Of a stretch of 64,000 nucleotides of DNA, positions 2,210 through 63,590 are shown piece by piece. The notes below the pieces were generated by a model. That model was not told where the DNA came from. It was given only the letters and a program-made list of their open reading frames with translations, and made no database searches. The stretch is taken from NCBI GenBank assembly GCA_965285935.1, contig OZ260667.1, positions 61,876,001 to 61,940,000 of the forward strand, in the 5' to 3' direction. Numbering within the stretch: position 1 is the first letter of the stretch; every line of letters starts with the position of its first letter. The position numbers and the translations under genes are program-made. The DNA is from Ophelia neglecta. Lineage: Eukaryota.

Positions 2210-5200
2210 ATGGCGAGGAGGGACATCTTCCGTGTGTTCCTCTACAGTATTGTACTGGTCTGTTTGGCGTCCTGCGCCCAAAACGATGTCTCTATGACAT
2301 TTTATAGGCAAAATATATGTTCTACAAATCCCATTGAAACTTACGTTGCCTATCGTTCTGGATGTTCCATGGAATGTCTAAGTAGATCTAGAAGAGGAAA
2401 CCAGTGTAGGGGGTTTGTTGTGAGACCAAGGCAGGAAGAAGACGTGTTTCTCTGTCACATGGACTCCGGTAACACTAGCAGTCATCTGTACTTGTCATCG
2501 ACAGTCACAGACGATACCTACTACCAAGGTTACGTAAGAATAAATAGTCATCCAAAGTTTCATTTTTTCCTGTAAATCAGGACTGCATGTTGAACTTTCC
2601 TTCGCATTTAACCAACATTTTAAATTTTTTAAGCTTTGCTACAATCTCGCATTTTTTTTAATTAATTTGACCGCGCACAAGTTTAACTCTACAACATGAA
2701 GAATACAACATAACAAGTTGAATGTTTTATACGTTGAATCGTTTAATCACGTTCATTAACGTGGTATACCTAAATGTATATGGGACCTTACGTGTGATTT
2801 AGCTGTGATGAGCTGTGCAATTCCTGGCGTAATATTTATTTGCTAATTGCTACCCAAAAACAATTAATGTCACTAGGAGTGTTCCTGTTTCTAAGAAAGA
2901 CAGGTTTTCGGCGGACAGGCATTGACTATAGTTTCTTTTCAGCATATATGTGGCATATTTCTGCTGGCACTTGGCGACTTTTTTGAATGAAGAGAATCAT
3001 TCTCACTATTGCCTTGTCTATTGAACTCTTAAGCTCAATATTTTGTTAGTGTGATGCCAATTAAAACTATCATTAAAAAGCATTAACGCTAATATTAATG
3101 CCCGAGATGTGAAATGTCGTCAAATTCCTGATGGTGGTGTCTATTGCTATATATACATTTATTCATTCGATCAATATTCTGTAGTAGACAATAGATAAGT
3201 TATAAAATCGAAGGTAGCTTGGCAGATATCCTGGTAGGTGTTCTAACAACATGGCACACACATAAAACTTGTTCAAACACAACTTCAATGAAAGTTTTGT
3301 CTCGTTGTCGATCATGGGGAGTTTATGGGAAATTATAATAAACAAAACAAATGCGCAACCAACACATTTGAGTTTGAGGGTTCGTGTGCAATGTGCCCTA
3401 CTGCGCTACAGGGCTGTATAGAGGGAATATTGTGAGACCACAGCAGGGCGAAGAAGGCGCTCTCTGTAATCTAAACTCTGGCAACACTACTACTCTGTTG
3501 CATTGGCCAGCAACAATCATTCAGGATACGCACCAGGGTAAAAAAAACAGCAAATAAAGTCATTTCTCCGTTGTTTTTGTTGATAATCCTCATTTAGCGC
3601 AAAAATGCAGTTTAGGACATTGTGTTTACGCCCACTACTTATCTATGAAAACACAATTACGTAAGATATTTTATTTTACCATGCGAATGCAATTCATAAT
3701 GAACTTTGTGACATATCTACTTTCGCTATTTTGATACAGCCACAATGATAATCAATTCCACGTTATGTTTAGTAGTAGTGAATGTATGAAATCTCAAGTA
3801 TAAGTTGTAGAAAAATATTATTTTTACAGTCATAAAAGTAACAATTTTGACACTTGTCTTGTTGGCAGCATAGCCAGCAACTCCTTTTATAGTCTAATTA
3901 GCAATATTATAGTTCTGAAATATTTTTATAATAAATAATGATTATACAAATAAATTGTATATGTTTTATAATTAATAACACCGTAATAAAGCTTGCTTTC
4001 TTGTTAATCTATAGAATTGACAGTACTATGCAACTAGCTTTATTAACCACATTACAGGTTATGCATCTACTCGATCAGTGGAGGAGGCAACAGGTAGAAT
4101 ACTACTTTGGTACCAATTCTTAAACTGCAAAATACCATGCCATACTACTTTTGCATTCCAATTAGACATTTCGAAATTACAAATGATCTCGTGGAGTTTT
4201 ATAGTTGATAGTCGTTTGGTAGTGGGTACGGACATAGTAGTACACAGCGGATGTGGGAAGAGCAAAACCCCTTTATCATTACATGCAATTTTAATGAGTT
4301 TTGTACTACTCAAAGCAAAATGATATTTGGGGTCTCTCAGTAAGATGCCTTCAACGTTAGGACCCCATTTATTTCGATCCCGTTTAAACATACTTTTCTT
4401 TTAACCTTAATCAACACCACAGGACGACTTCTGTCAGCCTCTTCTTCATATCAATCTCGAGCGGATCACGGGCCTCAATGTTCAGTTCTCGGTGTGCCTA
4501 AACCAGGCAGCTGTCACAGCGGTGCTTGGGCTTCTGGCTCTCAGATGGTCAATGAATGGATTCAGGTGGGCTGACATTATTCTTGAACTTTGGTTTAAAC
4601 AATTTTATAAAAACATATACCTTGTTATTGATATGGGTTGCCAGAGCAGATGAGTTATGGTTTTGTACGCAACATGCAACGTGTGCGTTTTGCATTCTTC
4701 TGGCTGGATAGGCATTTACCTAGCAGCGAACTTATACAAGATTATTGCTCGGCAGGATCTTATTTCTCTGACGACTCACCCTTTGTGTACTTGCCCAGCG
4801 CATATTAATTGTGGCGCTGGAGAACGATCATTAAACACCACTATAGACCATATTGTTATCAAAACGTCTACTCTAGACTTGATATAACCCTGCGCAGTCA
4901 TGGAGAACAATGCTTTTAACCTCAGTGATCAACTACCGATTGTGGCAAAATAGTGATGCAGTGGCAACTCTGTGTTAGTCCGTTGTTGCTGTCCTAACAG
5001 AGGCCGGTAACAAACACGTTTCAAAGTCAAAGTATATACCCTCTTTAAGCCCGTATTGGAAACCCTGTGGTCTAAGCTCCCCCAAACAAAATGTCATGTC
5101 AAAGCGTCACACGTGGACTACAGCTGGCAAACCAAGAGGAAACCACCGACTCTTCAAGCAATATAAATAAGCAAAACGTTTTTCAGATCCAGAATGCGGC

Positions 5201-7118
5201 AATGTGATATTAATCTAAAATGGGAATTCCAAATGGACTTAGAGTCCGCAGACGTTAATCAGAACCTGTTGTGGAAAGTGGTGCGTAACTCTTACGCCAA
5301 ACAGGCGTCTGAAACACTCGAACTGAAAGTTAATGATAAAACATTGAGATCATCTGAAGATATAGTGCACACCTGGTAAGAATACATTTCATGTCTCTAC
5401 ACCCCTTTTGAGGAGCCAGGCTTTGGTAATGGATACAAAGCACGAGAAGAAGCCAAGTTTGAAAATACCGAACTTTCCTTATTGAATCACGTCAGCCAGG
5501 GGACTTACATGAATGACACCTTATTGAACAAGCCGATTCTCATAAGTGAACTCCGAAGTTATGTTGCCAAGATGGGTACAGGAAAAGCCCCAACCATGAT
5601 AATTTCACGAATGAAAACCTAAAATATGGCGGTTTAAAATGTAGGAGAGCCCGTACCTCTTTATGTGTTCCACCGTGTGGTCTAAAGAGGGTTGTCATGT
5701 TTGGCATAATACCATTTTCCCTACTGTTTCAAAATTAATCCACCTGGCACAGATGTTTAAACAAGTGGGTCCTATTTTCTAATCGTCATATTTTGATATA
5801 CATAATATTGTAAAGTCTGTATTCTTATATCATGCAAAAAGAGGAAATAAAGATAATATATATGGTTACAATTTGCATTATTGTGATATGCCGTAGTATC
5901 TTACAATTCGCCCACGTGAATTTAATTTTTTACCTGTATGGTTTATAACAAGACAAAATAGAACTTTGTATTTGGACTTTCTGAGTTTCATCGCCGCAAT
6001 AAGTGACCGTTGAGGTGGGCCATCTTTTGAATAAAAATGAGAATTAAAAAAATATCTGAACCTGGCCTAATATTGGACCACATGATATGTCTTTCACATC
6101 AAAATAAGATTACTTAACCTGAGGGGTCGGACACGTTCAATATTCCGGACTATAAAAGGAATATTGAGTGTGATAGTTTGGCGGCATAAGTTACAATTTC
6201 GTCTGTTACGTGACTGTTCATCAAATTAGTTTTTAATTGATTTATATTTGGTTATGATTGTAGGCGGACCTAGGTATACCTTACGATATAGTCGCCATTG
6301 CCACAAAAGGAAGAAAATCTGGCCAGTCACAGTGGGTAACGTCATACAAGCTAGCCACCTATGACGGAAGTGAGGTCATATTTTACCCCGATGGGGTAGA
6401 AGAAACAGCCAAGGTAAAGCACAAGAAGCATTTCTATAAAATCTCAATTGTTATCACTAAATGACTTATATAATCACGTGGCTAAATGATCGCCGCTTAT
6501 TTTCTGAAAATTGACAATTTAGAGTACGTTGAATTTTATTATATCGGTGCAAGTATTATACCTAGATACTATTTTTATGCTGGGCTAAAAGCATATGTCT
6601 CTCTACCAATCATTTAAGAGAACCTAAGCCCAGTGAACCTGCTGTGCGAGTACATTATGCTGTGTTGGTATATTTTTTCAGAAAAGTTCCCCGATTTAAG
6701 GTTATATTACACATAATAATGTGTTCTCCGCTATAATGCGATGATACATATTAAACAGGATTTTCAACATAAGGTTGTAGTCCCCATATGCAACTGCCAA
6801 TGATATAGAGTTATATTTAATAGCGGTTGTCCGACAAGTTTATATAAGCTATATTCAAATGATTACCCTGAAGTAGTTATGTAATCAAGCAAAAGCTTCT
6901 GCAGTTTCTTATGAATATCCGTCACCTTCCACTTGTGCACATTTGAAATACGTCATTTATACTTTCTTCAGCTTTTCAGTGGAAACTCTGACGAGGATAC
7001 TGAAGTTAAGCACACCCTGTGTCCCCCTCTAGTGGCCAGAAGAGTAAGGCTGTATCCTATTACGTACAGTGGTTACTGTAGTCTCAGGTGGGAGCTGTAC
7101 AGCTTCGCAGCTGCATAA
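2210..7118 (+). CDS. Secreted PAN/apple + F5/8 type C (discoidin) protein, subfamily A copy A1 (splice sites weakened; may be decaying)
   Basis: Exons 2210-2528, 4058-4093, 4405(or 4423)-4565, 6264-6413, 6972-7118; phases 1,1,0,0; about 270 aa with no internal stop. Hydrophobic signal peptide; PAN-like C-x3-C...CRGF...C; FA58C motifs LSASS, AW, EWIQADLG, IATKGR, QWVTSYKL, FSGNSD, ARRVRLYP, SLRWELY. The intron 2 acceptor reads AA (AG in paralogs) and the intron 1 donor is GTTACG. Confidence 0.8.
3251..3537 (+). pseudogene. Decayed signal+PAN exon-1 copy inside intron 1 of A1
   Basis: aacaacATGG start context; remnants KQNKCATNTFE and VRPQQGEEGALCNLNSGNTTTLL; ends at cag g|gtaaa donor; has stops and frameshifts. 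Confidence 0.8.
4690..5640 (+). mobile_element. Degenerate non-LTR retrotransposon ORF2 fragment (end of APE endonuclease to start of RT) in A1 intron 3
   Basis: Remnant motifs TTIDHIV, NLSDQLPIV (SDHxP), LLWKVVR, GKAP..DNFTNENLKYGG; absent from intron 3 of A2; boundaries approximate. Confidence 0.7.
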
Positions 7119-8198
7119 ATCGAAACAGAAACGAACATAATCTGAACAAAATATGAATGAACCGATATTATAACAAACTATTACGATAACTGATTGTTAT
7201 GTCCACTGTTAGATAACCCAGTACACGTTTACGACCTCCAAACGACCTTGGACATTGATCCTGACGCTCTGCTTATATACCGAATAATCATTACCTTGTT
7301 AACTGTATATCAATATTGAAGGCTTCTGTGCGAACAAGGTTGTAATCAACATAAAAATATGTTTGCGATATAACCGTGGAATCATGGAAATCACGCTTGC
7401 AATTCAGTTAGGGTTGACGACCTCCAAACATCCTTTGACATTGATTGATTTCCTCTTTGTTTAATATTTACATAGTAAGCCATTTATTGTGCAAACAAGG
7501 TTATATTACCACGTTATTATGTCTGGGACAAAGCCTAGATTACCATGGAAACAGGAGGCGGGAATATGTATATCGGGATATCATGCATAAAAATTTTGTC
7601 TGAAGAGTATATAAACCCATGTGTCAATATTTTATTTTCTCAAAGTTCATCACAACTAGTTTAGTACGCGCTAGACTTTTCTGCATTGTTTGTTTAAATG
7701 ATTACTTTTTTCAGGTATGTTACATAATTATCTTTAGAAGAGTACCTTGCGACCCTTAGGGTTTTTATCTCAAGGAAAACCAACAATAACCAAATCTAGG
7801 GAAAGCAGTTAATAAATTTAAGTCCTTTCTTTTACTTCTTGTAATGCAGCTGGGAAACTATTGGGCTTTAATTTTTAACTACGAGATTTAATGTAATAAT
7901 CTTACATTCTGAAATAATTTGTGCGGAAGAATGATCAGGTATTGATAATATTAAGGTTCTAACTCGGCCTGAGCTGTCTAGGTTTACTCCCACGAGACCA
8001 GAATAACAAAGGAAACCCGATAAAGCAACATTCCTGTCTCTGCATGATTTAAACAAAAACATCTATGATTTTTCAGCCTTAAGCAATGCACACAAGTGAC
8101 CGTCGGCGGTGTAGAACTATGATCTGGCACTCCTCCGAAAACAATAACACGTAATTATCAAGTACAAATTGTTAAGATTTTGTCCTGTATATTCTTAA

Positions 8199-8994
8199 AT
8201 CATCTGAGAAACATAGCTAGGATAAAAACATTTCTGACAAAGGAGGCTCTCAAAACTATTATCCATGCATTGGTCATATCAAAACTAGACTATTGTAATT
8301 CCTTGTATATAGGTTTGCCTAAATGCCTTTTAACTAAACTGCAGAGAGTGCAGAACGCTGCAGCACGGTTAATTTGCAGAGTCCCTTATCGTGAATACCT
8401 CACGCCATTTCTTATGGAACTACACTGGTTGCCTGTTGAAAAACGCATTGTTTTTAAAATTTGTGTACTGACTTTTAAAGCTGTTCACCAGCAACTACCT
8501 AATTACCTGTCCAATTACCTTCAACCCTACACAAGTTCTAAATTTTTAAGATCATCAGATCAAAATCTCCTGACAATACCAAAAATTCGTACTCGTACTT
8601 ATGGTGAGCGATGCTTTCATTATTCAGCCCCTGTGTTATGGAATAGTTTGCCCCAAGACCTTAGAAGCATAAACTCTATTGCATCTTTTAAGAAGAAATT
8701 AAAAACATACTTTTTAAATTAGCTTACACAATCTAATATTTTATTGTTTCCAAATTCGGTTTTTCACCTTGAATTTTATTTTGTTGAATGTAATTAATAC
8801 CTTGTATTGTGTAATTCTTATATTTATTTTTGTGTAATTTATTTGTCCTTATTATATTTTATCAATGATTGTATTTGAGATTGATTGTGTTTTTATTGTG
8901 TTGTATGCTAATTGTTAAGTGCTTTTGAACAATCCATGTACATTGTAAAAAGCGCTATATAAGTGAAATAAATAATAATAGATAATAATAATAA
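8199..8994 (+). mobile_element. 5'-truncated L2-clade LINE (ORF2 C-terminus + 3' UTR + TAA-rich tail)
   Basis: HALVISKLDYCNSL..LQRVQNAAARL..LHWLPV..LWNSLP..FKKKLKT; 3' stem gtgcttttga..aaaagcgc then (aat)n; empty site attcttaa|agggttctaa in the paralogous block at about 51730. Confidence 0.92.
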
Positions 8995-9042
8995 AGTGTT
9001 CTAACACAAGTTGACTAAAATTTAGTTTCCCGGGTTTCAATT

Positions 9043-9285
9043 AGGTCCCGTGTTCTCCTGTCCATAACTATGATAGTCTCTTTGGAGTTTTACATCAGTT
9101 GTGATTTGTTGCCATGTTTTTTTAGAACATATGTGCAACCAATACCTCCGAGGCTTTAGATAATAGGCTTTAGTGTTGTGCCCTAAAGTGTGTCAGCAGG
9201 ACAAGGATGCGTAGAGGGCATACTGTGAAATCAGATCAGTGCAGAGGCGGCGTTTTTTTGTGATGAAGACTCAGGCATCTCAAGT
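9043..9285 (+). pseudogene. Decayed signal+PAN exon-1 copy
   Basis: ctgtccataactatgatagtctct, aacatatgtgcaaccaat, tgtgccctaaagtgt, tgtgat..gactcaggca match exon 1; frameshifted; paralogs at 46703 and 51778. Confidence 0.75.
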
Positions 9286-9449
9286 CAAATGATTATATCG
9301 GACACCCATTTATATTCCTTGATCATATATATCATACAATTATTACGGACGTAGCCGGTTAGAAGCACGTTCAGACTCTAGTGCGGATGTCGGGCACCTA
9401 TTTAAGGTGCTATAAGTATGGGTTGCACAAAAGACTTCGTTATAAACCA

Positions 9450-9640
9450 CCTGATGCAACTAAGTAAACGGAACATTTTCGCAACAAACAGAATTGAGGT
9501 CTTGTTAGGATTCATGGCGAATGTGCCCTCAACTGTCTGAGAAGAGGAGGGCTGTGTAGAGGGGTTTTTGTAAGACCATAGCAGTAAGTATTCTAGACAA
9601 GGCATCCCTAGAAATGTGCTGTATTATAGAGCAACACTGT
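9450..9640 (+). pseudogene. Decayed PAN exon-1 copy (5' part missing)
   Basis: gcaacaaacagaattgaggt, gaatgtgccctcaactgtctgagaagaggagggctgtgtagagggg (ECALNCLRRGGLCRG); frameshifts and stop. Confidence 0.8.
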
Positions 9641-11347
9641 TAATATTAATGGTGCAATAGCAGTAAATATCCCAAGGAAACTAAGAGTCCCCTTACACTC
9701 ATAACAGACTGGTAACGGTTTATCGCCGGGCGGAAAACAGCGAGGGGGGGTCATGATTGTGCAAAAAAGAAGAACATCTTGCACGTTGAAAGTATATATT
9801 ATTTTTAGATAATATAAGTCAGGTATATATAAAAATAATGTAAAGATGATAGCATGATGCACAGACTGTACAATCTAAGTCAGACACTTATAAATGGCAG
9901 AATGGTAAACATTTGTAGAATTTAAGGCATAGTGGCAGCTTACCCAAATGATGAAAACTAAACCAGTGAATCAAACATGACCACTTGGGTGCAGCACTGG
10001 CAACACCAATGAACTAAAATGGTGAGTAGTAATGGTATGGTATCCATTCGGCAAATAGGAATCAATTATGCTGACAGCCTCTGCCCACCCCACCCCCCTC
10101 CCACCCCCACCCCCATAGAAGTATTGGGAAAGTTAAGAAGTTATGTTATAATTTCAATATGATATGTAAGAAATTAATACCAAAAAACATGAAACATTTC
10201 GTTGATGATATTGGCCAAACGAACTCTGTCACAAAGGTTTTAAATATATGTACCCATCCCGCTCCTCATCTTACAGAGAATAACCCCGACACTGATACTA
10301 ACCCTACCGTTGTCCGTGGATCGAGGTCGATGTTGGCAGAGTTTACCTATACGAATTTGATTTAATTATACTAGTAAATAAGTAAGTTTATTTGTACTTC
10401 AGGCTCAACGCCCATGGTACATTAATAATGATACAAAAAATATAATGCTACAGGACAGAGATTCTAAAAAAAATTTAATTATACTAAAACGAAATGTAAG
10501 TCGTTTTGGACTGGATCGTAAGGAACGCTTATGAGACAACATGCAGTTTATTCACAGAACACACCGGAAACATATCCAATTCAACTTGTAGGGACAACTG
10601 GTATTTATTGAATTCTATACTATTTAGGGTATATATACACGCAAGTTACTTATATAGCTCGCTCTACTGCCGCTTCACGGCTGTTAGAGAGATTTCTATA
10701 AGCATGGGTTGACCAAACATTTCGCTATGAACAACCTGGTAGCGTGTGTGATGAATTTATCGAAACAACTTTATAGTATACAATGTCAATTGTATTATCT
10801 GCATGAATATCTGATACCAGATAGCCATGGACTAAAAGCTATGATACAAGGAGGATCGATGGATACGCTTTTAACCACTAAGAGCCATGTCATGTAAAGA
10901 AGTGGAGGATGTTGAAAATGGGCAAAATAGTAACCAGGCACAGCCGCACGTACAAAACAACATAATATTTCCTGGTCAACGCCATCACGTATTGTGTTGT
11001 TTCTACCTAATCAAACATTAGTTTTGTTGTCTTAAAGTGTTTCCTAGCTAAAGACTATGTACACTGCCATTGTGTTTTTGAAAGCTACAACAAACACGGA
11101 ACAATTATCATCGATCTTTTCAGTGTTCTATATATCCTTCTTCATATAGTCTTCATGTCTCGGGGGGTATAATACTCTCGTCTTTCATCCTTCTCTATTC
11201 AGTTTATAAGACAGTGTGCCATTGGCCAGTCTTAAGATTGTTGGGAACTACATATAGGCGAGTCAAACTTGTTGTGATAACAAAATGACACCATCGTTGA
11301 CCAGATGGGGCGCAACTTTATGAACATACACTAGCAGTGTTAGCGAC

Positions 11348-14078
11348 ATGGATGGACGAGACAAGATCCACCTATTTCTGTCCATAACTCTACTAGTGTC
11401 TTGTGTGTTCTGCGTCGAATGTGAATTTGTTTCCTTGCAATTTAGTAAGGGGAAAATATGCGCAGCAAACACACTTGAGGTTTTGGTTAGAAGTCATGCA
11501 GAATGTGCCCTAAAATGTCTGAGACGAGGAGGGTTATGCAGAGGGTATTTTGTGGGACCTCAGCAGGGCGGAGATGACTTTCTTTGTGATATAGACTCAG
11601 GCAACACTGGTACTCTGCTTTACTATACAACAACAGTCACCGGAAAGGACTACTCTCAAGGTAACCATTTATTTTCTGAGAGTCATTTACTGATATAACA
11701 CTTTATGTAATGGCTTGCGGCTTGCATATATTTGATGTGTGTGAAATAGCCGTTATATCCTTTGTATTCATGAAATGTTTATCTTGACGCTAAGTGGAAA
11801 TGTTTTCGAAATGTTTCACTGTTAAAAAAATCATTAAGAAAATAATCATGAACACTTTTCATAGCAAAAGTTAAAATAGTATGTAATGACACAGGAGAAG
11901 CAGCTGTTTCAAAGTTCCATTAATTATATGCTATTACTAATATATAAAATATACAGTGTATTTGTAATTGGAAATCACCACTCCTATGTTTACAAGCGCA
12001 GTTTAAGGAATAGCATTTCCTTCCCATATATTCACCGAACAATTGGATACAGACAATTATTCTAGATGATTCCACAATAAGTATCCTTAAATTATATAAA
12101 TGATTTGATATTTCAGAAGCAGCAGGCATTCGTTCGGTGGAAGAGGCAGCACGTAAGTCAAACTAGAGACTACTCCTAACAATTGAATATGTTAATAGAT
12201 ATGAATTTTTTTTTTTTTCTTTCTTAGAAATGACTGATAATATAAATTTTATTGTATCTGTTCAAGGCATTACGGGGTACAATATAGACTGTTGGCTTTT
12301 TATAACGCACACTTATTGTCTAGTATATATTTTCAAAGCCGCTCACGAATACTAGAGATGATATACTAGGACATTAAGTTAACAGCAAGGTAATGGAAGT
12401 AGCAAAATACCTAACCATTACATTCCCTGTTATTAGATGTGGATCTCTTTTCGAAACTAGCAGAGCCAAGGGTTCGCTCCAAATATATATCTTTGCCCCT
12501 CGATACCCCCTAATCAACGTCCGTGTTCCGATCTCCGAATACAGCCCTGATCACCACCACAGGAGAACTTCTGTCTGCCTCCTCGTCATGGCCGTATGTA
12601 CAAAATCACGGGCCGCAATGTTCGGTTCTCGGAGTCCCTACACCAGCAGATTGTTACATGGCATGGGTTTCTAGCAACCCTTCGGGAGGGGATTGGATTC
12701 AGGTACACTGGCTTTATTTTCAGATGTCTTTGGTTTAAATTGACAAAACTGTTGCTATGATATAAGAATATATAGGCGTATTGTTTTCAGGGCTGTAAGT
12801 TAACGATATATTAAGGTTAATGGTGATTGTTATCAGGTAATGAAATATGTGAGTTAAGTTTGCTGTAAATCGGGGTCAAAGGTTAGATTTGGTTTTCTGG
12901 GATAAGGAGATATGTAAGGAGCGTCTACTCTCTTGACTGCCTTACAGTCTAGTTAAAGAAAATTTATGTCAATGTTGTTAGTGTTGGGTAATTTTTGATT
13001 AAGTTAATGTTTTATTTTGGGATGTATAATTTGAAATACTTTTTCATGTTTTGTATTTGGTTACGTAGGCGGATCTCGGCAGTACCTATGATGTAGTTTC
13101 CATAGCAACACAAGGGCGTGGCGATAGGGCACATTGGGTAACGTCATTCAAATTGGCCGCCTATGAAGGTAATGCTGTCATATATTACCCCTCTGGAGAA
13201 GAAGAAACTGCCAAGGTGAGGCACTTAAAAGCTGAATCGCCATTTATGGTTTACATACTGGAAGAAGCAAATATTTTTATTCATACCGGAACCTGTCATT
13301 TTCCCCACCAATTGTCACCGGGAAAAATTAGACCAGGAATCTGGACAGAAGGTCCATTTGTCACTGGGTAAAATCAAACTTTCACTCTAGACAGAAAGTC
13401 CATTTGTCTTCGGGCAAAAAGCAGACCAGCAATCTAGAAAGGTCCATTTTTCACTTGGTTAAATCAGACTTGCACTCTGGAAAGAGGGTCCATTTGCAAT
13501 TAGACTCTGTACATCGCAGCTTCATACCAGCTGATCACGCAGCCTAATCAAACATTAACTGATCACGTGAACAGTTGATTGGTAATGCTCACTACCTAAA
13601 TCCCTGACCTAAAGCAATGTAGATCAGCCAATCCTGGTAGGAATAAATCATATATCTCTTATATCACTGACATTTATGTCTACCTTTTTTATAGCGATAT
13701 GAACTATGGTCAGGTGATAACAGTCCTTTTCTAAATTTCTAAATTAATCACCGGTCAACCTGTGTTCAAACAGACGTTCTATATTCAGTTATGGGTTTCA
13801 ATTTTTATAATAATAGGAATCTTAGATATTTGGAAATAAATGTGGTAAGTCAATTTATCTACCATGGCAGACGAATATATTTTCATTCAATAATGTTCAT
13901 GAAAAAAGTATATTGTATTATTTTGTTCAAGGTTTTTTATGGAAACCTTGACCAAAACACTACGGAAAAGCACACTTTATGTCCAGTTCTGGTGACCAGG
14001 AGAATAAGGCTGTATGTTTTTGCATGTTACAGTATCTGTGGTCTCAGATGGGAGCTATACGGCTTCGGGACTGCTTGA
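11348..14078 (+). CDS. Secreted PAN/apple + F5/8 type C (discoidin) protein, subfamily B copy B1
   Basis: Exons 11348-11660, 12117-12152, 12545-12702, 13069-13215, 13932-14078; all GT-AG, phases 1,1,0,0; 801 nt = 266 aa + stop; ECALKC..CRGY PAN core; DWIQADLG..IATQGRGD..WVTSFKL..GNLD..LRWELYG. Confidence 0.92.
13320..13510 (+). repeat. About 46-bp degenerate tandem repeat in intron 4 of B1
   Basis: Repeated gacagaaggtccatttgtcactgggtaaaatcaaactttcactcta-like units; paralogous array at 55870-56070. Confidence 0.8.
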
Positions 14079-14313: not shown

Positions 14314-14319
14314 AATAAA
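14314..14319 (+). terminator. Putative polyadenylation signal of B1
   Basis: AATAAA about 235 nt after the stop, conserved in B2 at 56882-56887. Confidence 0.45.
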
Positions 14320-15834: not shown

Positions 15835-15872
15835 TATCTGCTAATGAACAGCCTCGAAACATTCCAGTAATC

Positions 15873-52020: not shown

Positions 52021-52179
52021 CAAATGATTATATCGGAAACCCATTTATATTCCTTGACCATGTATATCATACAATTATTACTATCGTGGCCGGTTAGAGG
52101 TACATTCTGACTCCAGTACGGACATCGGGCACCTATTCAAGGTGCTATAAGCATGGGTTGCACAAAAGACTTCGTTATG

Positions 52180-52365
52180 AACCAACTAAGTAAACGGAAC
52201 ATTTTCGCAACAAACAGAATTGAGGTCTTGTTAGCATTCATGGCGACTGTGCCCTCAACTGTCTGACAAGAGGAGGGCTGTGTAGAGGGGTTTTTGTAAG
52301 ACCAAAGCAGTATGTAATCTAGACAAGGCATCCCTAGAAATGTACTGTATTAAACAGCAACACTG
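52180..52365 (+). pseudogene. Decayed PAN exon-1 copy (paralog of 9450)
   Basis: tgtgccctcaactgtctgacaagaggagggctgtgtagaggg; collinear with 9450-9640. Confidence 0.78.
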
Positions 52366-53902
52366 TTAATATTAATGGCGCAATAGCAGTAAGTATCGCG
52401 AGGAAACTAAGAGTCGCCCTACACTCATAAGAGACTGGTAACCGTTTATCGCCGGGCGGAAAACAGGGAGGGGGGGGGGTCATGATTGTGCCAAAAAGCA
52501 GAACATCTTGCACGTTGAAAGTATATATTTTCTAGATAAAATAACAAAGGTAGAAATAAAAATTATGTAAAGATGGTAGCATAATGCAAAGCCTGTACAA
52601 TCTAAGTCAGACACTTCTAAATGGCAGAATGGTAAACATTTGTAGAATTTAAGGCATAGTTGCAGCTATTTCACAAATGATGGAAATTAAAAAAGTGAAT
52701 CAAACATGACCACTTGGGTGCAGCACTGTCAAAACCAATGAAATAAATGAAATAAAATAGTGATTAGTAATGGTATGGTATCCATTTGGCAAATAAGAAC
52801 CAATTCTGTCGTGAAAGCTGAGCCTCAAAGTAGTATTTTGAAAGTTAAGAAGTAGTGCTATATTTATTATGATTAATATTTGTTGATGATATTTACCCAA
52901 CGCACTTTGTCAAAAAGTTTTAAATTATTTGTACTCATCCCGTTCCTCATCCCAGAGACTTACACTATGTTAATAACCCCGACACTGATACTTACCCTAC
53001 CCTAGTCGTTGGATCGAGTTCAATGTTGGCAGCGTTTACTGTATACCAATTGAATTAAATTATTCTAAAACGACATGTAAGTAGTTTTGGACTGCAACGT
53101 ATCGAACGCTTATGAGACAACATGCAGTATATTCACAGAACACACCGGAAACACATCCAATTTAACTTGTAGGGACAACTGGTATCCATTGAGTTCTGGA
53201 CTATTTACGGTGTGTAAACACGCATGTTACTTTTATAGCTCGCTCTACTGCCGCTTCATGGCTGTTAGAGAGATCTCTATAAACATGGGTTGCTCAACAT
53301 TTCGCTATAAACAACGTGTGTGATGAATTGATCGAAACAACTTTATAGTATTCAATTTCAATTGTATTATCTGCATGAATGGCTGATACCAGATAGCCAT
53401 GGACTAAAAGCTATGATACAAGGAGGATCGATCGATTCGCATTTAACCACTAAGAGCCATGTCATGTAAAGAAGTGGAGAATGCTGAAAATGGGCAAAAT
53501 AGTAACGAGGCACAAACGCACGTACAAAACAACATTATATGTCCTGGTCACCGTCATCACGTATTGTGTTGTTTCTACCTAATCACACATGACTCCATTA
53601 GCTTTGTTGTCTTAAAGTTGTTTCCTATCTGAAGACTATGTACACTGCCATGGCGTTTTGAAAGCTACAACAAACATGGAACAATTATGATCGATCTTTT
53701 CAGTGTTCTATATATCCTTCTTCATATAGTCTTCAGATCTGGGGGGTATAATACTTCTCGTCTTTCATCCTTTCTCTATTCAGTTTATAAGAATCTGTGC
53801 CATTTGCTAGTCTTACAATTGTTGGCAACTACGAATAGGCGAGTCAAACTAAATTTTGTCCAGGTGGGCGGCAAATGTACATACACTAGTAGTGTTAGTG
53901 AC

Positions 53903-56635
53903 ATGGATGGACGAGACAAGTTCCTGTTCATAACTCTACTAGTCTCTTGTGTGTTCTGCGCCGAATGTGAATTTGTTTCCTTGCAATTTAGTAAGGGGAA
54001 AATATGTGCAGCAAACACACTTGAGGTTTTAGTTAAGAGTCATGCAGAATGTGCCCTAAAATGTCTGAGTCTAGGAGGGTTATGCAGAGGGTATTTTGTG
54101 GGACCGCAGCAGGGCGGAGACGGGTTTCTTTGTGATATATACTCAGGCAACACTAGTACTTTGCTTTACTATAAAACAACAGTCACTAGAAAGGACTACT
54201 ATCAAGGTAACCATTTATTTTTTTCCGATTTACTGATATAACACTTTATGTAATGGCTTGCGGCTTGCATATACTTAATGTGTATGATATAGCCGTTATA
54301 TCCTTTGTATTCATGAAATGCTTGTCTTGGCGTTAAGTGGAAATGTTTTTGAAATGTTTCACTGTAAAAAAATCATTAAGAAATTAATCATGACCACTTT
54401 CCATAGCAAAAGTTAAAATAGTATATAATGACACAGGAGAAGCAGCTGTTTCAGAGTTCCATTAATTATATGCTATTACTAATATATAACATTTACATTG
54501 TATTTGTAAATAGAAATCTCCACTCCTATGTTTACAAGCGCAGTTAAGGAATAGCATTTCCTTCCCATATATTCACCGAACAATTGGATACAGACAATTA
54601 TTCTAGATGGTTCCACAATAAATATCCTTAAATTATAATAAATGATTTGATATTTCAGAAGCAGCAGGCATTCGTTCGGTGGAGGAGGCAGCACGTAAGT
54701 CAAACTAGAGACAACTCCTAACAGGAATAAGTTAACAATTGAATATGTTATTAGAGATGAGTAATTTAATGGTTATTTCTTCTTAGAAATGACTGATAAA
54801 TTTTTTTTTTATTCACCAATGCATTACGGAGTACAATATAGACTGTTGGCTTTTTTATAACGCACACTAAGTGTCTAGTACTTATTTTCAAAGCCGCTCA
54901 CGAATACTAGAGATGATTTTATCACAAATTCCGGGGATAATTCGGGACATTAAATTAACAGCAAGGGAAATGGAGCAGCAAAATACCTAACCATCACCTT
55001 CCCTGTTATGTGACCTGGCTCTCTTTTCGAGACTAGCAGAGCCAAGGGTTCACCTCAAAATATATATCTTTGCCTCCTCGATAACCCCTTATTAACGTCC
55101 GTGTTCCGATCTCCAAATACAGCCTTGATCACCACCACAGGAAAACTTCTGTCAGCCTCCTCTTCATGGCCATTTACACAAAATCACGGACCTCAATGTT
55201 CGGTTCTCGGAGTCCCTACACCAGCCGGATGTTACATGGCATGGGTTTCTATCAACCCTTGGGGAGGTGATTGGATTCAGGTACACTGTCTTTATTTTCG
55301 GATGTCTTTGGTTTTAAAAGGCAAAACTAGTGCCGTGATATAAGAATGTGTAGGCTTATTGTTTTCAGGGCTGTATGTTAACGATACATAAAGGTAATGA
55401 AATATGTGAGTTAAGTTTGCTGTAAGTCGGGGTCAAAGGTTAGATTTGGTTTTCTGGGATAAGGAGATATGTAAGGAGCGTCTACTCTCTTCACAGCCTT
55501 ACAGTCTAATTAAAGAAACTTTATGTCAATGTTGTTAGTATTGGGTAATTTTTGATTAAGCGAATCTTTTATTTTGGGATGTATAATTTGAAATACTGGT
55601 TCATGTTTTGTAATTGGATACGTAGGCGGATCTCGGCAGTACCTTTGATGTAGTTTCCATAGCAACACAAGGGCGTGGCGATGGGGCACATTGGGTAACG
55701 TCATTCAAATTGGCCGCCTATGAGGGTGATGCTGTCATATATTACCCCTCTGGAGAAGAAGAAACTGCCAAGGTGAGGCACTGAAAAGCTGAATCGCCAT
55801 TTATGGTTTACATAGTGGAAGAAGCAAATATTTTTATTCATACCGGAACCTGTCATTTTCCCCACCAATTGTCACCGGGCAAAATTAGACCAGGAATCTG
55901 GACAGAAGGTCCATTTGTCACTGGGTAAAATCAAACTTTCACTCTAGACAGAAGGTCCATTTGTCACTGGGTAAAATCAAGCTTTCACTCTAGACAGAAG
56001 GTCCATTTGTCCTCGGGCAAAAAGCAGACCAGCAATCTAGAAAAAGGGTCCATTTGCAATTTGACTCTGTACATCGCAGCTTCATACCAGCTGATCACGC
56101 AGCCTAATCAAACATTTACTGATCACGTGAACAGTTCATTGGTAATGCTCACTACCCCTGACCTAAAGCCATGTAGATCAGCCAATCCTGGTAGAAGGAA
56201 TAAATCATATATCTCATATATCACTGTCCTTTATGTCTACCTTTTTTTATAGCGATATAAGCTATGGTCAGGTGATAAATGTCCTTTTCTAAATTTCTAA
56301 ATTAATCACCGGTCAACCTGTAGTTCAAACAGAAGTTCTATATTCAGTTATGGGTTTTAATTTTTTATAATTATAGCAATCCTAGATATTTTAGAAATAT
56401 AGTAAGTCAATTTATTTATCATGGCAGACGAATATATTTTCATTCAATAATGTTCATGAAAAAAGTATATCGTTTTATTTTGTTCAAGGTTTTTGATGGA
56501 AACTTTGACCAAAACACAACGGAAAAGCACACTTTGTGTCCAGTTCTGGTGGCCAGAAGAGTAAGGCTGTATGTTTTTGCATGCCACAGTATCTGTGGTC
56601 TCAGATGGGATCTGTACGGCTTCGGGACTGCTTGA
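53903..56635 (+). CDS. Secreted PAN/apple + F5/8 type C protein, subfamily B copy B2
   Basis: Exons 53903-54206, 54659-54694, 55123-55280, 55626-55772, 56489-56635; all GT-AG; 792 nt = 263 aa + stop. Confidence 0.92.
55870..56070 (+). repeat. 46-bp tandem repeat in intron 4 of B2
   Basis: gacagaaggtccatttgtc at 55901, 55947 and 55993. Confidence 0.85.
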
Positions 56636-57120
56636 TTGAAAAACGAATGCACACGAACATACATTCATCATTGAGCGGGATATACCGAAATATATTATAT
56701 TGTGATTAAGTAAATGTGAAGGGCGCTGTCAAATAATCCAGTGCATGTTAACGACCTTTAAACGACCTTGGACATGGAACTTAACCCACTTTGCTTATAA
56801 CCTGATTAATATTTGCATAATTACCATGTTTAAATACCGAAGAAGAACCAGAACCCATTGTGTTAATTCTTTCTTTCCTTCAATAAAAACTTAGCATACT
56901 ATGTGTTAGAAATTGGCTGATTTCTTGATGATAAATCATGACTTCAAAGAGACTGTTGCATTCTGGACCACCGCCCATAATGTAAAACACATTTAACATT
57001 AACCATTTAACCATTAACCATTACCCCACACATAGGTAAAAAGAATACAATGTGTCATAATTTATAACGTAAAAGAAGTTAAACTACTGCAGATATGGAA
57101 GAATCTTAAATTATATGAAA

Positions 57121-59400
57121 ACAAATTATGCCAATTAATACTAAATGTGACACGTGCTCTTCATGTGTTAGTTGTTTAGTTGATGATCCAGTGCATGAAA
57201 ATAACAAAAGACATTTATAATCCTATTTGTCTGCAAATTAACTTGTACTGAACTTAGAAATTAACATTTACCGTAAAGTAGAATAGAACGTCAAAAATGA
57301 CTCAGAAAAGAAAGAACGAACCATGGTGCATTGCGATAAACAGGTCTGTTTTTCACAAATCCATTCAAACAAAACCAAGTGTTGAATCTTGAGAGATTTT
57401 ATGAATATTTCTTGACTTTAGAATACATCAAATACTTGGTCGTATACATGCACTTGCAGGTTATCTTTAAACGCTGTCTTATTGTTGAGACTCAAGATAT
57501 AACTAAGTTGCATTGTATATTTACGATCAAATAAATCTACATAGTTTCATTAGAATGCACTAGTGGAAAAAAAAATACAATTTCTTGCCAGAAAGTAAAA
57601 TTACTAAGAAACGAAAAAAGAAGTCGTTTTCCACGACACAATTTTTATTTTTTCCCACGACACAACGTGTTTTTTTATTGTTTGTTTAACCAATTCGTTT
57701 AATAGACGTGACAGACTATCAATACGTAAGCGCATCGATCATGTCCGTCTCTCCAGTCGGTGAGCAAGGCTGCGTCACAATAAATACCACACTGACTGTA
57801 GCCCGGGGTGGTACAGCTTCCTTCAAATGACCTTGGTAATTGATCACAAATGGCTTTCCTTATACACTAATTTATTTTTACCTAATTACATATTTTAATT
57901 CCCAAGGTTGCCAATGCACACACAGATATAATAAACATAATGATATGTCTGCGATATAACCAAAGAAATCATAATAAATGAAGTCGATGAGCAAGGCTGC
58001 ATCACATTTAAAACCACGCTGACTGTAGGCCGGGGCGCTACAGCTTCAGGGCTGTATATAGCAATAGGAAACTAACGAACTAGTCGATGAATAAAGGAAC
58101 CTAAAATATGATAACAAACTATTGTGACGAGCTAAATGTGCGCTGTGAGACAATCCAGAACTTGTTAACAACCATCAAATGACATTGGAAGTTGATCAGC
58201 ACTTTCTTTTCTTATACACTGATTATGTTTACATTATATCATAGTTTAATTTCCCAGGTTGCCAATGCACACACAGATATATTAAATATAATGATACGTC
58301 TGCGATATAAACAAATCTCTCATGGCAAATGAAGGAGTGCTACATACATATGATGATCGTGTATATCAATAATGTCTTAAAAGATCATTAACTAATTTTG
58401 TTAGTCGTTTACTTTTTCTTCAATAAACCACTTCACATATAGTTAATGCATATAGTCCATGACTTGTGGACCTAGGCTTAATATTTTGTCCCTAGGGAGT
58501 GTCTTATGAAGTTTTCCCGTGACGGATAGACAAAATGTTCCGCCTAGTTCCTCTATCAAGGTCCATATTTGTTTTATTATACATCCAATCAAATATTAAT
58601 TAAATGCTCATCAGCAGAAACCACTGTCTTTACCAATTAAACGTGGTGAAATCACCGAAATTTTCATTGGATCTAATAATAGCTTGCACAATACATATTT
58701 GTAGTCTGGTTCATGCCCGGATAGCTTCCTCGGCTAACAGGTTTGTCGTATAATAATATTCTACAGTAGTTCTCTCGAGGCGCCACCTGTGCCATATGCA
58801 ATTTTCTGGAAAGCTAAACGGAGAATAAACGGCAGAACAAGCGCACAGCGGGAAACAAGACACTCTCATCCACAATTCTCAACCAATAAAATATACCCTG
58901 GATGTATAATGATATGTGTTAGAACTTTGCTTATTAGTTGCCACGAGCTCACAGGTCGTATACCATACGCTGTAACAAAGCTACGGACACCATGCCTCGC
59001 TCATTCTTGGCATTTGTAGTGCCAACAGCGATAACGATACGCTCGTTAATGTCCCTCGTTAATATGTCTGCGATATAAGCTAGTTAATCATGAAAAAGGC
59101 AAATAGTCATAAATGTTAAAGGCACAATTTGCATATAAATGCTAACCATAAGGGAGCATGTGCCCATTGTGCTTACTTTTTATTACCTTCAAGCCAACTA
59201 TAGGTCTGAGAACTAATTGGTAGTAAATAATAGATTCCCGTTGCGTCTTTCCCAGATTTTCTTTAAATGATTTGGTTGTATCTCTCATGCCATTAGTTCA
59301 GTATCTGGTAAGGTTTTGTTTTTATTTTCGAGTTATCCTTCTTAGACAATATAGGTTCAATAACAAGAATAATACACCTTGAACTTGGCCCAGTTTCTGG
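57121..59400 (+). repeat. Segmental duplicate of the intergenic region at 1-1900 (parts also at about 36740-38400)
   Basis: aatactaaatgtgacacgtgctct, acgtaagcgcatcgatcatgtccgtctctc and ggacaccatgcctcgctcattcttggcatttgtagtgccaacagcg are shared in the same order. Confidence 0.88.
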
Positions 59401-60057
59401 AAGCGGTCTTAACTAAAATTAAAGTCAAAAAATCAGGTCCAGAAACGGCATCACTCTCCTAGAGACCTTCGCGCTAGTTTGCGAAGAAAAATCTCTCCTC
59501 CAGCTTCTTTTTCCAAATACTATTCCATGTAAAATTTGATGAGATGCACTTTAATTGTCCTTTTTTATATCTGGCACAAAACTTGAGCATCCGTGATAAG
59601 GTGAATCACAAGGTGTATATTGGACACCCATTATATTATTGTTCTTAATGTGTATATTGGACACACTTTGTTATTCTTAACGTATATATCGTACTCACCT
59701 TATTAATCATATTGTGTGTATCGGACACATATTATTTATCATAGTCTGTACATGGGACTCACGTTATCATTCTTGTTATGATTATCTGACAATCGAGACA
59801 AGTTCCATCTATTATAAACTCATTCTGCGTCATACAGAGAAGTAAAGGGTTGTTTGAAGGGTAAATAGTGAAGAGGCACGCATACGATGACAAAACAACC
59901 TGGTTGTCATAACAACTAAACCTAATACTGATTTGTCGACGTCATCACGTGATTATTGTCTATACCTATTCAAACACTAGTGGCTATAACAAAAATTTCA
60001 CCATCATTGACCAGATTGGTTGCACCATTTTTAACATACACTAGCAATCTGAGCAAC

Positions 60058-60340
60058 ATGGAAGGACGAGACAGGTTCCGGGTATCCTGTCCTTAACTCT
60101 TCTAGTTTCTTTTGTCCTGCTTCGAATGTGATGCTATTTCTATACAACTAAGTAACCGGGACATTTTCGCAACAAACATAATTGAGGTTTTGTAAGGATT
60201 CATTGGGAATATGCCCTCCACTGTCGACAAGAGGAGGTCCGTGTAGAGGGGGTTTGTAAGACCATAGAAGGGGGAAACGGCCTTCTTTGTAATCTAGGCT
60301 AGGCATCCCTAGAACTGCACTGTATTATAAGGCAACATTT
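60058..60340 (+). pseudogene. Decayed signal+PAN exon-1 copy with ATG retained
   Basis: cactagcaatctgagcaacATGGAAGGACGAGACAGGTTCCGG (MEGRDRFR); frameshifts and stops follow; same lineage as 9450 and 52180. Confidence 0.82.
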
Positions 60341-60607
60341 CATGTTAAATGGGCAATAGTAGCAGTTATCGCTCGGAAACTGAGGGTCGCCTTATACTAA
60401 TCATAAAAGACTGGTAATGGTTCATCGCCGGGCCGGAAAGAGGTGGGGGGGGTCATGATTTATGCAAAAAAAAACAGAACAACTTGCACTGTAGCAGTTA
60501 TCAATTTTATATGTATTAACCATTTGCAATAATGACCGGCTGTGAACATTGTGAACAAGAAATAGAATTGATATTAAAAAACAAGTAAACCTGTCGAATA
60601 GCCAGTG

Positions 60608-60732
60608 AGGAGAGGAGGGCTGTGAAGAGGGTATTCTCTGAGACCACAGCAGTGAGGAGACGACGTTCTTTCTGATCTAGACTCAGGCAACACCAGTATT
60701 ATGATGTATTATACGGTAACAGTCACTGACGA
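60608..60732 (+). pseudogene. 3' half of a PAN exon-1 copy
   Basis: agaggagggctgtgaagagggtatt..agaccacagcag..gatctagactcaggcaacaccagt..acagtcactgac. Confidence 0.78.
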
Positions 60733-61571
60733 TTTTTATTGATTTTGGAAATATTCTAGGAAACTATGATTTTGAGGTATTCTCATTTGAAAGTCGGCCT
60801 CAAACCAGTGAATCAAAAATTGGCCAATAGGAACCAATTTTACTGTGAAATCTGTCAGCCTTTGCAGGGACATTTTGCCCCCCCCCCCCCCAAGTAGTAT
60901 TTTGAAAATTTATGTTAGAGACCTCTCTATTAACATGGGTAGCACAAACATTTCGCTATGAACAACCTGATAGCGTGGGTGTTGAACTGATCGAAACAAC
61001 CTTATAGTATTCAATTCCATCTGTATCATCTGCATGAAGATCTGATACCAGGAGGATCGATCGATATGCTTTAAACCATAAAATGGCCATGAATTAAAAG
61101 CTATGTCATGTAAAGAAGGTGAGAATGTTGACAAATGGTTAAAATAGTGACGAGGGACAAACGCACCGACAAAACAACATAATATTGCCTGGTCACCGTC
61201 ATCACGTATTGTATTGTTTCTACCTGATCAAACATGACTCCATTAGTTTTGTTGCCATAAAGTGTTTCCTATCTGAAGACTATGTACACTGTCATTGTGT
61301 TATTAAAAGCTACAACATACATTGAACAATTATAATCGATCTTTCAGTGTTCTATATATCCTCCTTCAAATAGTCGCCAAGTCGGGGGTGTATAATACTC
61401 TCGTCTTTCAACCTTTATCTATTCAGTTTATAAGAATGTGTGCCATTTGCCAGTCTTACAATTGTTGGCAACTACATAAAGGCGAGTCAAACTAGTTGTG
61501 ATAACAAAATGACACCATCGTTGACCAGATGGGGCAGAACTTTATAAACATACACTAACAGTGTTAGCGAC

Positions 61572-63590
61572 ATGGACGGACGAGACAAGTTCCAGCTATT
61601 CCTGTTCCTTACTCTACTAGGGTCTTGTGTGTTCAGCGTCGAATGTGAATTTGTTTCCTTGCAATTTACTAAGGGGAAAATATGCGCAGCAAACACACTT
61701 GAGGTTTTAGTTAAGAGTCATGCAGAATGTGCCGTAAAATGTCTGAGCCGAGGAGGGCTGTGCAGAGGGTATTTTGTGGGACCGCAGCAGGGCGGAGATG
61801 GCTTTCTTTGTGATATAGACTCAGGCAACACTAGTACTTTGCTTTATTATACAACATCATTCACTGAAAAGGACTACTATCAAGGTAACCATTTATTTTA
61901 TTCTGAGAGTCGATTACTGATATAACACTTTATGTAATGGCGTGCGGCTTGTATATAGTTAATGTATGCAAGTTTGAAATGTTTCTATCGATGTTTGGAT
62001 GAAATCCAAACATACAAACAAGTCAAGCAATTTGAGTGTATTTAATAGCCGTTATATCCATTGTTTTCATGAAATGATTTTTATTTACGCTTAGTGGAAA
62101 TGCTTTATTAAAATGTTTCACTGTTAAAAAAAATCATGAAGAAATTAATCATGACCACTTTTAATGGCAAAATTTAAAATAGTATGTTATGACACAGAAG
62201 AAGTAGCTGTTTCAGATTTTCATTAATTATATACTGCTACTAATATATAACATAAACAGTGGATTTGTAAATGGAAATCACCACCCCTATGTTTACAAGG
62301 GCAGTTTACGGAATAGCATTTCCTTCCCATATATTCAACGAACAATTGGTTCCAGACAAATATTATCCACAATAAATATCCTTAAATTGTGAGAGAGGTC
62401 TAAAACGATCATGATACTCTGAAAGTTAACAGTGTATTCATTAAAGAAATGATTTAATATTTCAGAAGCAGCAGGCATTCGTTCGGTGGAGGAGGCAGCA
62501 TGTAAGTCAAACTAGAGACAACTCCCTAACAGGAATACATTGACCATTGATTATGTTATTAAAAAGGGTTATTTCTTCTTAGAAATGACTAATAGTATAT
62601 ATTTCATTGTATTTACTTTTCAAGGCATTACGGGGTACAATATAGACTGTTCGCTCTTTTATAACGCACACTTAGTGTCTAGTATTTATTTTCAAAGCCG
62701 GTCACGAATACTTGAGATGATTTTGTCACACATTCCAGTGATAAACCAGGGCATTAAGTTAACAGCAAGGTAATGGGAATAGCAAAAGACCTAACCATCA
62801 CCTTCCCTGTTATGTGACCTGGCTCTCTTTTCGAAACTAGCAGAGCCAAGGGTTCACCTCAAAATATATATCTTTGCCTCCTCGATACCCTCCACTTAAC
62901 GTCCGTGTTCCGATCTCCAAATACAGCCTTGATCACCACCACTGGAGAACTTCTGTCAGCCTCCTCGTCATGGCCATATACACAAAATCACGGACCTCAA
63001 TGTTCGGTCCTTGGAGTCCCTACACCAGCAGATTGTTACATGGCATGGATTTCTAGCAACCCTTCGGGAGGTGATTGGATTCAGGTACACTGTCTTTATT
63101 TTCGGATGTCTTATGTTTGAATAGGAAAAACTGGGGCTGTGATATAATAATGTATAGGCGTATGGTTTCAGGGCTGTAGATTAAAGATGTATAAAGTTTT
63201 ATGGTTATTGTTATCAGGTAATGAAATATGTGAGTGAAGTTTGCTGTAAGTCGGGGTCAAAGGTTAGATTTGGTTTTCTGGGATAAAGAGTAATGAAAGT
63301 AACGTCTACTCTCTTGGCTGCCTAACAGTCTAGTTAAAGAAACTTAATGTCAATGTTGTTAGTATTGGGTTATATTTAATTAAGTCAATGTTTTATTTTG
63401 GGATGTATAATTTGAAATACACGTTTTGTAATTGGATACGTAGGCGGATCTCGGCAGTACCTATGATGTAGTTTCCATAGCAACACAAGGGCGTGGCGAT
63501 ATGGTACAGTGGGTAACATCATTCAAATTGGCCGCCTATGAGGGTGATGCTGACATATATTACCCTTCTGGAGAAGAAAAAACTGCCAAG
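61572..63590 (+). CDS. Secreted PAN/apple + F5/8 type C protein, subfamily B copy B3 (exon 5 expected beyond the window)
   Basis: Exons 61572-61884, 62466-62501, 62927-63084, 63444-63590; all GT-AG and in frame. Confidence 0.88.

Follow-up and report, generated by a model that had tools for sequence, protein, structure and literature searches.

A tandem array of putative secreted PAN–discoidin genes in two interspersed subfamilies of Ophelia neglecta

A stretch of 64,000 nucleotides (nt) of Ophelia neglecta (contig OZ260667.1, positions 61,876,001 to 61,940,000; hereafter the window) holds a tandem array of genes whose predicted products are small secreted proteins, with a PAN/apple domain followed by a single discoidin (F5/8C) domain. 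Judging from sequence comparison, these products would be two-site surface binders of a birth-and-death family, and immune or mucosal recognition, in blood, mucus or gut, is the role that we rank first, at about even confidence. We regard the array as an unnamed example of a familiar kind, that is, a lineage-restricted tandem family of secreted modular binders.

Organization of the array

The DNA is of animal type, with spliceosomal introns, retroelements and a G+C content of 37%, and six loci were found in it, all on the forward strand and in the order A1, B1, A2, A3, B2, B3 (Table 1). Four genes (A1, B1, A2 and B2) are complete; each, when rebuilt from its splice signals, consists of five exons that give an open frame of 263–267 amino acids (aa) with no internal stop. 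The intron phases are 1/1/0/0 with GT-AG at each modelled junction, exon 2 measures 36 nt in all six loci and encodes a 12-residue linker, and intact copies differ in exon length by multiples of three only. B3 is truncated by the window end: its four exons in the window encode 218 aa, intron 4 is unfinished, and exon 5 is expected to lie past the border. An earlier sequence-only reading of the window had described six copies with one five-exon plan; this held for the order, for exon 2 and for the phases, and has to be amended for A3, a broken gene without exons 3 and 4 whose exons 2 and 5 join out of frame, and for B3, whose last exon is outside the window.

Two subfamilies, A and B, are interspersed along the array, as that reading also had it: amino-acid identity is 78% between A1 and A2 and 88–90% among the B copies, vs 51–55% between A and B. 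Exon 3 has two candidate acceptors 21 nt apart, only the downstream one being present in A1 and only the upstream one in B3; at the upstream site A1 reads AA, and its model takes the AG 21 nt downstream, with the loss of 7 codons. A B-type exon 2 near 12350–12400 was rejected on account of an in-frame stop and a donor that is not conserved. A non-coding block lying 50–400 nt upstream of the start is conserved (~71%) among B1, the orphan first exon C described below, B2 and B3 (10959–11162, 39105–39358, 53531–53789 and 61176–61432, respectively) and is a probable promoter or untranslated exon; a TATA-like word is found ~200 nt upstream in the B copies. As to repeats within the genes, intron 4 of B1 (13308–13496) and of B2 (55865–56056) contains a tandem repeat with a unit of ~92 nt, and intron 3 of A1 holds, by eye, a probable fragment of a long interspersed element (LINE) at about 5100–5650 (+).

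The discoidin domain

The assignment of exons 3–5 to one F5/8C domain, already made in the sequence-only reading, was confirmed by profile and alignment matches. In Pfam, F5_F8_type_C (PF00754) matched exon 4 (profile positions 40–72) and exon 5 (positions 86–127) in the three genes A1, B1 and A2, with E values of 5.5e-6 to 0.079; each single exon scores below the cut-off of 28.2, and exons 4 and 5 of A1 sum to 49.7 bits. Matches of A1 exon 5 in the PDB were the C domains of factor V/VIII, discoidin II, neuropilin and CASPR2. Exon 3 alone had no Pfam match in any of these three genes, and a PDB sequence search with its profile gave nothing below E 0.3; aligned with P0005, an F5/8C member at full Pfam score, it gave E 4e-13 with both loop cysteines aligned.

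In A1, A2, B1 and B2, neither the beginning of exon 3 nor the part that follows the last strand contains a cysteine. In the F5/8C domains of factor V/VIII and lactadherin a disulfide closing the two ends is usual, not universal; the missing terminal pair marks a variant, and the profile match stands. An extra cysteine pair in the exon-3 loop is also present in P0005, and one cysteine of exon 5 (C233 in A1) is invariant. The first loop carries aromatic residues in B and polar ones in A, and the tripeptide Arg-Gly-Asp (RGD) occurs in the fourth loop of all three B copies and in none of the A copies.

The PAN domain

Exon 1 very likely encodes a distant PAN/apple domain, a conclusion drawn jointly from four tests, each of them weak (Pfam, ESM Atlas, profile search and fold comparison), and from five cysteines that are invariant in all seven exon-1 translations and follow a CxxxC...C...C pattern. 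PAN/apple domains have four to six core cysteines and make protein or carbohydrate contacts, according to passages of PMC9249922. Once the leader was removed, PAN_1 was the sole Pfam match in three of the six mature domains (13–14.4 bits, E 0.034–0.094). In the ESM Atlas the exon reached 0.93 to PAN_1/apple clusters, with 153–164 features in common, a number in keeping with distant relationship. Among 1.84 billion representative proteins, a profile search returned four matches, of which one has four PAN_4 domains, one is a low-complexity repeat and two are without a PAN call.

The structure model of the mature domain has a mean predicted local distance difference test score (pLDDT) of 57, its strand-helix-strand-strand core (residues 14–63) reaching 70–78; in this core the CxxxC helix is followed by two cysteine-bearing strands. 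When the model was compared by VIA-align, the best match had Z 5.2 and a root-mean-square deviation of 2.5 over 47 residues, and four of the top 20 titles name PAN or apple; 15 of these 20, including ranks 1–7, are chains that we take to bear PAN/apple domains, among them SML-2, the apples of kallikrein and factor XI, MIC4 and the N domain of HGF. The PAN fold is supported by this enrichment of matches, not by high Z.

Other results speak against the assignment: the PAN_1 scores stay under the cut-off of 21.4, the remaining three of the six mature domains have no PAN match, and the fold Z-scores are only 4.5–5.2, on a model of mean pLDDT 57. Pfam gave no PAN match in the five exons searched with their leader, the PDB sequence search with the exon 1 profile found nothing below E 0.3, and Foldseek on the mature model had no match at E 0.001. 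Pfam matches of A1 exon 1 to Argos and defensin were rejected as sub-threshold matches of the cysteine pattern; a first structure model, made with the leader kept, was set aside, as the leader helix ran into the domain and neither fold search named PAN. The PAN domain of the sequence-only reading is retained as a distant one, below the Pfam cut-off.

C37 of A1, one of the invariant cysteines, has no obvious partner inside the PAN domain, and a bond between C37 and C233 may staple the two domains together.

Secretion and selection

A signal peptide is indicated by a heuristic measure, namely a hydropathy peak of 2.3–3.1 within residues 7–23 in all five proteins. Only one later window rises above 1.8, in A2, and no later membrane anchor was found. 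The proteins are of ~26 kDa, with an isoelectric point (pI) of 5.2–6.0.

The genes are under purifying selection and alive. The ratio of nonsynonymous to synonymous substitution rates (dN/dS) over the whole gene is 0.34–0.57 in all ten pairs and falls below 1 at p values of 0.03 to 2e-10 in the five pairs tested, with values of 0.34–0.50 (p 0.03 or lower) for the young B copies. Within the discoidin domain, six loops were delimited by their flanking motifs; amino-acid changes affect 11 of 46 loop columns vs 9 of 103 framework columns in B (p 0.018), and 12 of 48 vs 5 of 99 in A (p 0.0008). The binding face of the discoidin domain appears to change faster, and positive selection is not supported.

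Turnover of the array

The family evolves by birth and death, as had been proposed from the sequence alone: a segmental duplication, eleven disabled copies of exon 1, the deletion in A3 and the A-type mosaics all bear this out. Recognition and adhesion families of invertebrates often turn over in this way. A block of 8 kb that spans A1 intron 4, two pseudo-exons and B1 (6435–14465) is repeated at 50068–57003, with 83–88% identity in pieces. A3 matches A2 up to position 50066 and resumes at 50068 within intron 4; exons 3 and 4 were deleted at this clean junction, 1,040 nt being missing in A2 coordinates, and the out-of-frame joining of exon 2 to exon 5 runs into two stops. In its exon-1 block A3 has 54 sites in common with A2 and 17 with A1, vs 53 with A2 and 128 with A1 in the block from intron 4 to the 3' flank (p 2e-11); A3 is a mosaic with an A2-like 5' half and an A1-like 3' half. 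A1 and A2 themselves are 80% alike in exon 1 and 94–95% in exons 4 and 5. Exchange among paralogues, by unequal crossing-over or by conversion, produced these mosaics. The region upstream of A1 (1–1894) is repeated before the B3 pseudo-exons (57119–59375) and partly upstream of exon C (37836–38810), which suggests further lost gene copies there.

Contigs from three runs (X1–X3) of one sample, its type not on record, were placed at 88% likeness and cover 40500–57200 in 30 of 30 bins. Joints that lead back from 50058 to 43424, and others that run from 44484 to 50082, were each seen in two of the three runs; these contigs link an A3-like intron 2 to the exon-3 side, and the exon-4 side to an A3-like intron 4 (43419–44484, 50058–50082). 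As a lead, the sample may carry an A3-like copy that retains exons 3 and 4, either an allele or a further paralogue. In run X1, 474 of 1,302 placed contigs are only 90–95% alike, and these may include further copies.

It could be argued that all of this is mostly neutral churn, one ancestral A and one B function having been followed by extra copies that a repeat-rich region generates through unequal crossing-over and that now decay, with a copy number that is not adaptive. The 8-kb block was indeed duplicated together with its pseudo-exons and flanks, the flanks of B1 and B2 are as alike as their exons (0.86–0.94 vs 0.90–0.97), and A3 and C are broken; nevertheless, the young B copies still show dN/dS of 0.34–0.50 and the length differences between intact exons are all multiples of three, and we consider this explanation very unlikely.

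Orphan first exons

A nucleotide map of the window counted 17 copies of exon 1, six of exon 2 and five each of exons 3, 4 and 5. The surplus exon-1 copies, overlooked in the sequence-only reading, carry a frameshift or stop in the reference frame in eleven of eleven cases (Table 1). In a tree of the first exons, with 16 of 17 included and the 90-nt fragment at 40581 excluded, one clade corresponds to A, one to B, and two more consist of three pseudo-exons each; these pseudo-exons multiplied together with the genes.

Table 1. Genes of the array and additional copies of exon 1; coordinates are those of the window
Feature	Coordinates	Strand	Details
Gene A1, complete, 264 aa	2210–7118	+	exons 2210–2528, 4058–4093, 4423–4565, 6264–6413, 6972–7118
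Decayed exon-1 copy	3331–3547	+	within A1 intron 1
Decayed exon-1 pair	9058–9636	+	9058–9277 and 9455–9636; upstream of B1
Gene B1, complete, 266 aa	11348–14078	+	exons 11348–11660, 12117–12152, 12545–12702, 13069–13215, 13932–14078
Orphan exon 1 (C), third subfamily	39404–39717	+	1.3 kb upstream of A2 exon 1; no exons 2–5 of its own
Short decayed A-type exon-1 fragment	40581–40670	+	90 nt; upstream of A2
Gene A2, complete, 267 aa	40999–45231	+	exons 40999–41308, 42847–42882, 43589–43749, 44301–44450, 45085–45231
Decayed exon-1 copy	42077–42359	+	within A2 intron 1
Decayed exon-1 copy	46693–47020	+	between A2 and A3; sister of the 9058 and 51794 copies
Gene A3, broken	49057–50718	+	remaining exons 1 (49057–49366), 2 (49470–49505), 5 (50572–50718)
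Decayed exon-1 pair	51785–52362	+	51794–52012 and 52183–52362; upstream of B2; duplicates of the pair before B1
Gene B2, complete, 263 aa	53903–56635	+	exons 53903–54206, 54659–54694, 55123–55280, 55626–55772, 56489–56635
Decayed exon-1 pair	60052–60732	+	60058–60337 and 60606–60732; upstream of B3
Gene B3, exons 1–4 open	61572–63590	+	exons 61572–61884, 62466–62501, 62927–63084, 63444–63590

Exon C, the youngest of the orphan copies, has kept its ATG, signal peptide, five PAN cysteines, GT donor and phase. Its sole lesion is an additional base within six consecutive A (39648–39675), which leads to a stop after 87 codons that ends 50 nt before the donor. Nonsense-mediated decay usually finds its limit at about this distance. 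Exon C was working until recently, because its dN/dS against the six intact first exons is 0.42–0.55 (p < 0.05 in five of six). The extra base may be a sequencing error; the run contigs do not cover this homopolymer. Should the frameshift prove to be a fault of the assembly or be confined to a minor allele, exons 2–5 of A2 could receive C as an alternative first exon, or C could be secreted as a free PAN peptide.

These data would also fit, although we think it unlikely, a cassette system in which interchangeable PAN heads are combined with a smaller set of discoidin bodies. Pointing to it are the 17 copies of exon 1 vs five or six of the others, the A-type mosaics of 5' and 3' parts and the nearly intact C just upstream of A2; if true, the locus would encode two-site receptors in a limited number of combinations, each locked by a disulfide between its domains. 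An invertebrate would offer combinatorial diversity in compact form, provided that heads and bodies are truly mixed by exon C or by recombination. Loci with variable first exons, of the protocadherin/UGT1 type, have several intact first exons that are spliced to shared constant exons; here all eleven orphan copies are disabled in the assembly, C by a single homopolymer base.

Proposed role

Once exported, the ~26-kDa protein would bind surfaces at two sites: its discoidin loops would grip a glycan or an anionic lipid on a cell, a microbe or the matrix, the PAN domain would grip a second glycan or a protein partner, or dimerise, and the bound protein would tag or cross-link surfaces. Passages of PMC10057474 describe the bottom loops of F5/8C domains as proposed contact points. 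A and B probably prefer different ligands, because the subfamilies differ most in the discoidin loops (the aromatic residues of the first loop, the RGD of B).

Several results weigh against recognition as the role of this family. The fucose motif His-X24-Arg-X-Asp-X4-Arg/Lys is absent in all five proteins, even with the spacing relaxed to 22–28, and so is the cation motif h2DGx, both being motifs of F-type lectins as defined in passages of PMC5712786. The RGD of the B copies may be incidental, near what is usual in this loop of the family; the corresponding position of discoidin II reads RGD as well. No region has a dN/dS above 1, the highest domain values being 0.64–0.65; the loop excess, measured against silent changes, is not significant within B or within A (p 0.11 and 0.15), with p 6e-6 across all five, and relaxed constraint would explain it equally well. 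The suggestion of a lectin-type recognition family made in the sequence-only reading is on these grounds a reasonable guess only: the F-type motifs and any dN/dS above 1 are lacking, and F5/8C proteins are known from adhesives and skeletal matrices no less well than from immunity.

The family could instead be a structural or adhesive part of an extracellular matrix, glue, tube, shell or skeleton, its modules cross-linking matrix glycans and proteins and its expansion reflecting dosage or layer-specific use, not pathogen pressure. This explanation, possible although doubtful in our opinion, agrees with the acidic pI, the RGD in B and the lack of visible positive selection. F5/8C domains recur in adhesives of sea urchin, sea star, flatworm and limpet, and those of sea-urchin nectin have loop cysteine pairs and a free cysteine (passages of PMC10057474); a lactadherin-like F5/8C protein is reported from a brachiopod shell proteome in part of PMC4453069, and PAN followed by F5/8C forms the core of matrix polydoms in part of PMC12549020. 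The adhesive proteins in those passages of PMC10057474 are, however, large and built of many repeats, while the family described here is small, with one copy per domain; also, a turnover as fast as this one, with eleven dead exon copies and mosaic genes, is from general knowledge more typical of recognition families.

A gamete-surface or fertilisation family, in egg coat or sperm, diversifying via sperm-egg recognition, would likewise consist of small secreted binders with variable loops, and oyster sperm bindin reportedly has a related F-type fold that is used in sperm; given that no dN/dS exceeds 1, that the F-type motif is absent and that nothing in the window points to the gonad, such a role is improbable. 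Immune or mucosal recognition keeps the first rank, and two comparisons given below count in its favour, a snail recognition protein with an added PAN and the rotifer lectin-like molecules with a single F5/8C domain. The family adds an unnamed, fast-turning member to the repertoire of invertebrate secreted recognition and adhesion proteins, and current views are unchanged.

Other elements in the window

A second small gene family lies in the middle of the array (25084–27919 (+), 19387–20890 (+) and 29848–30487 (-)). Once spliced, its four-exon gene (25084–25159, 26792–26923, 27213–27402, 27853–27919) gives an open frame of ~155 aa, which includes a leader and is SnoaL/NTF2-like at its start; the Pfam matches, SnoaL_2 (E 0.0013) and DUF4440 (E 0.019), are both under cut-off, and exon 3 gave only leads under 0.9 in the ESM Atlas. 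Two lesions disrupt the SnoaL-like copy at 19.4–20.9 kb, a deletion of 2 nt in exon 2 and an exon-3 stop; the minus-strand copy consists of exons 3 and 4 only, beside a retrotransposon. The latter is a Ty3/Gypsy-type long terminal repeat retrotransposon (30488–35114 (-)) with matches to gag zinc knuckle, protease, RNase H and integrase and several broken frames, flanked by direct repeats that are 96% identical over 167 nt. A long LINE-type element with broken frames and a reverse-transcriptase match occupies 14900–18430 (+), and a similar LINE 3' fragment was seen by eye downstream of A1 (8120–8990 (+)). A tandem repeat at 46263–46450, with a unit of ~60 nt, reads as a repeated peptide, and a direct duplication of 680 nt is located at 36.1/37.1 kb (36130–37827).

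Comparison with known systems

The databases searched, in which spliced animal genes are thinly represented, yielded no full-length relative. Using a word index, the exon-1 alignment with longer proteins gave none of 8,000 candidates at E 0.01, and that of exon 3 gave one of 4,418, P0005, which is itself without PAN; the mature PAN domain aligned with none of 94 proteins of near length. Two loci among 131 stretches in a metagenome scan were rejected as chance matches lacking the other exons. The family had been called lineage-specific, which fits these blank searches; the argument is weak, as the databases hold few animal gene models. No publication naming a stand-alone family of signal peptide, PAN and F5/8C was found in a literature search that left supplementary domain tables and most subscription papers outside its scope. 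Unnamed gene models of corals and molluscs often combine PAN and F5/8C.

The closest architecture is that of the cnidarian polydoms, in which PAN/apple stands directly before FA58C as the core in Hydractinia, Hydra and Nematostella (NvPolydom1); these are secreted matrix proteins for which passages of PMC12549020 propose a role in immunity or adhesion. As giant mosaics, polydoms also contain vWFA, pentraxin, Sushi, HYR, EGF and CUB domains. In the present family no further domain accompanies the pair, which follows a signal peptide and is encoded by a five-exon gene; the likeness considered here is one of architecture. The surrounding domains of Polydom/SVEP1 are absent from the family, whose frame opens with the signal peptide and closes behind a single F5/8C domain.

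Among F5/8C proteins, exons 3–5 show clear sequence kinship with lactadherin, the C domains of factor V and VIII, the b domains of neuropilin, CASPR2 and discoidin I–II; unlike that group, the family has one such domain, no end cysteines and an extra cysteine pair in the exon-3 loop, and its first loop is shorter than in factor V and lactadherin alignments. With the F-type lectins (fucolectins) it shares the F5/8C jelly-roll fold, as given in passages of PMC5712786, as well as secretion and expansion in invertebrates; it differs in lacking their fucose and cation motifs. Passages of PMC10057474 present sea-urchin nectin as another secreted protein of the F5/8C group, whose loops bear cysteine pairs and which has a tripeptide of integrin type; nectin differs in its six F5/8C repeats and in the absence of PAN. 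Secreted proteins with a single F5/8C domain are counted among rotifer lectin-like molecules in part of PMC8878817.

With the PAN/apple modules (PF00024, PAN_1; the N domain of HGF, kallikrein/factor XI, Sarcocystis SML-2, Toxoplasma MIC4) exon 1 shares the cysteine pattern and the strand-helix-strand-strand core, and it departs from typical ones in its five invariant cysteines, one of them unpaired in the domain, and in its score under the Pfam cut-off. Passages of PMC7588048 describe a snail recognition protein of fibrinogen type that carries an added PAN, as do some of its limpet counterparts. Next to these systems, the array offers the smallest form of a PAN–discoidin pair otherwise described within the giant polydoms; it would be handy for asking what the pair binds and how the two domains pack, with A and B as a natural loop-swap pair.

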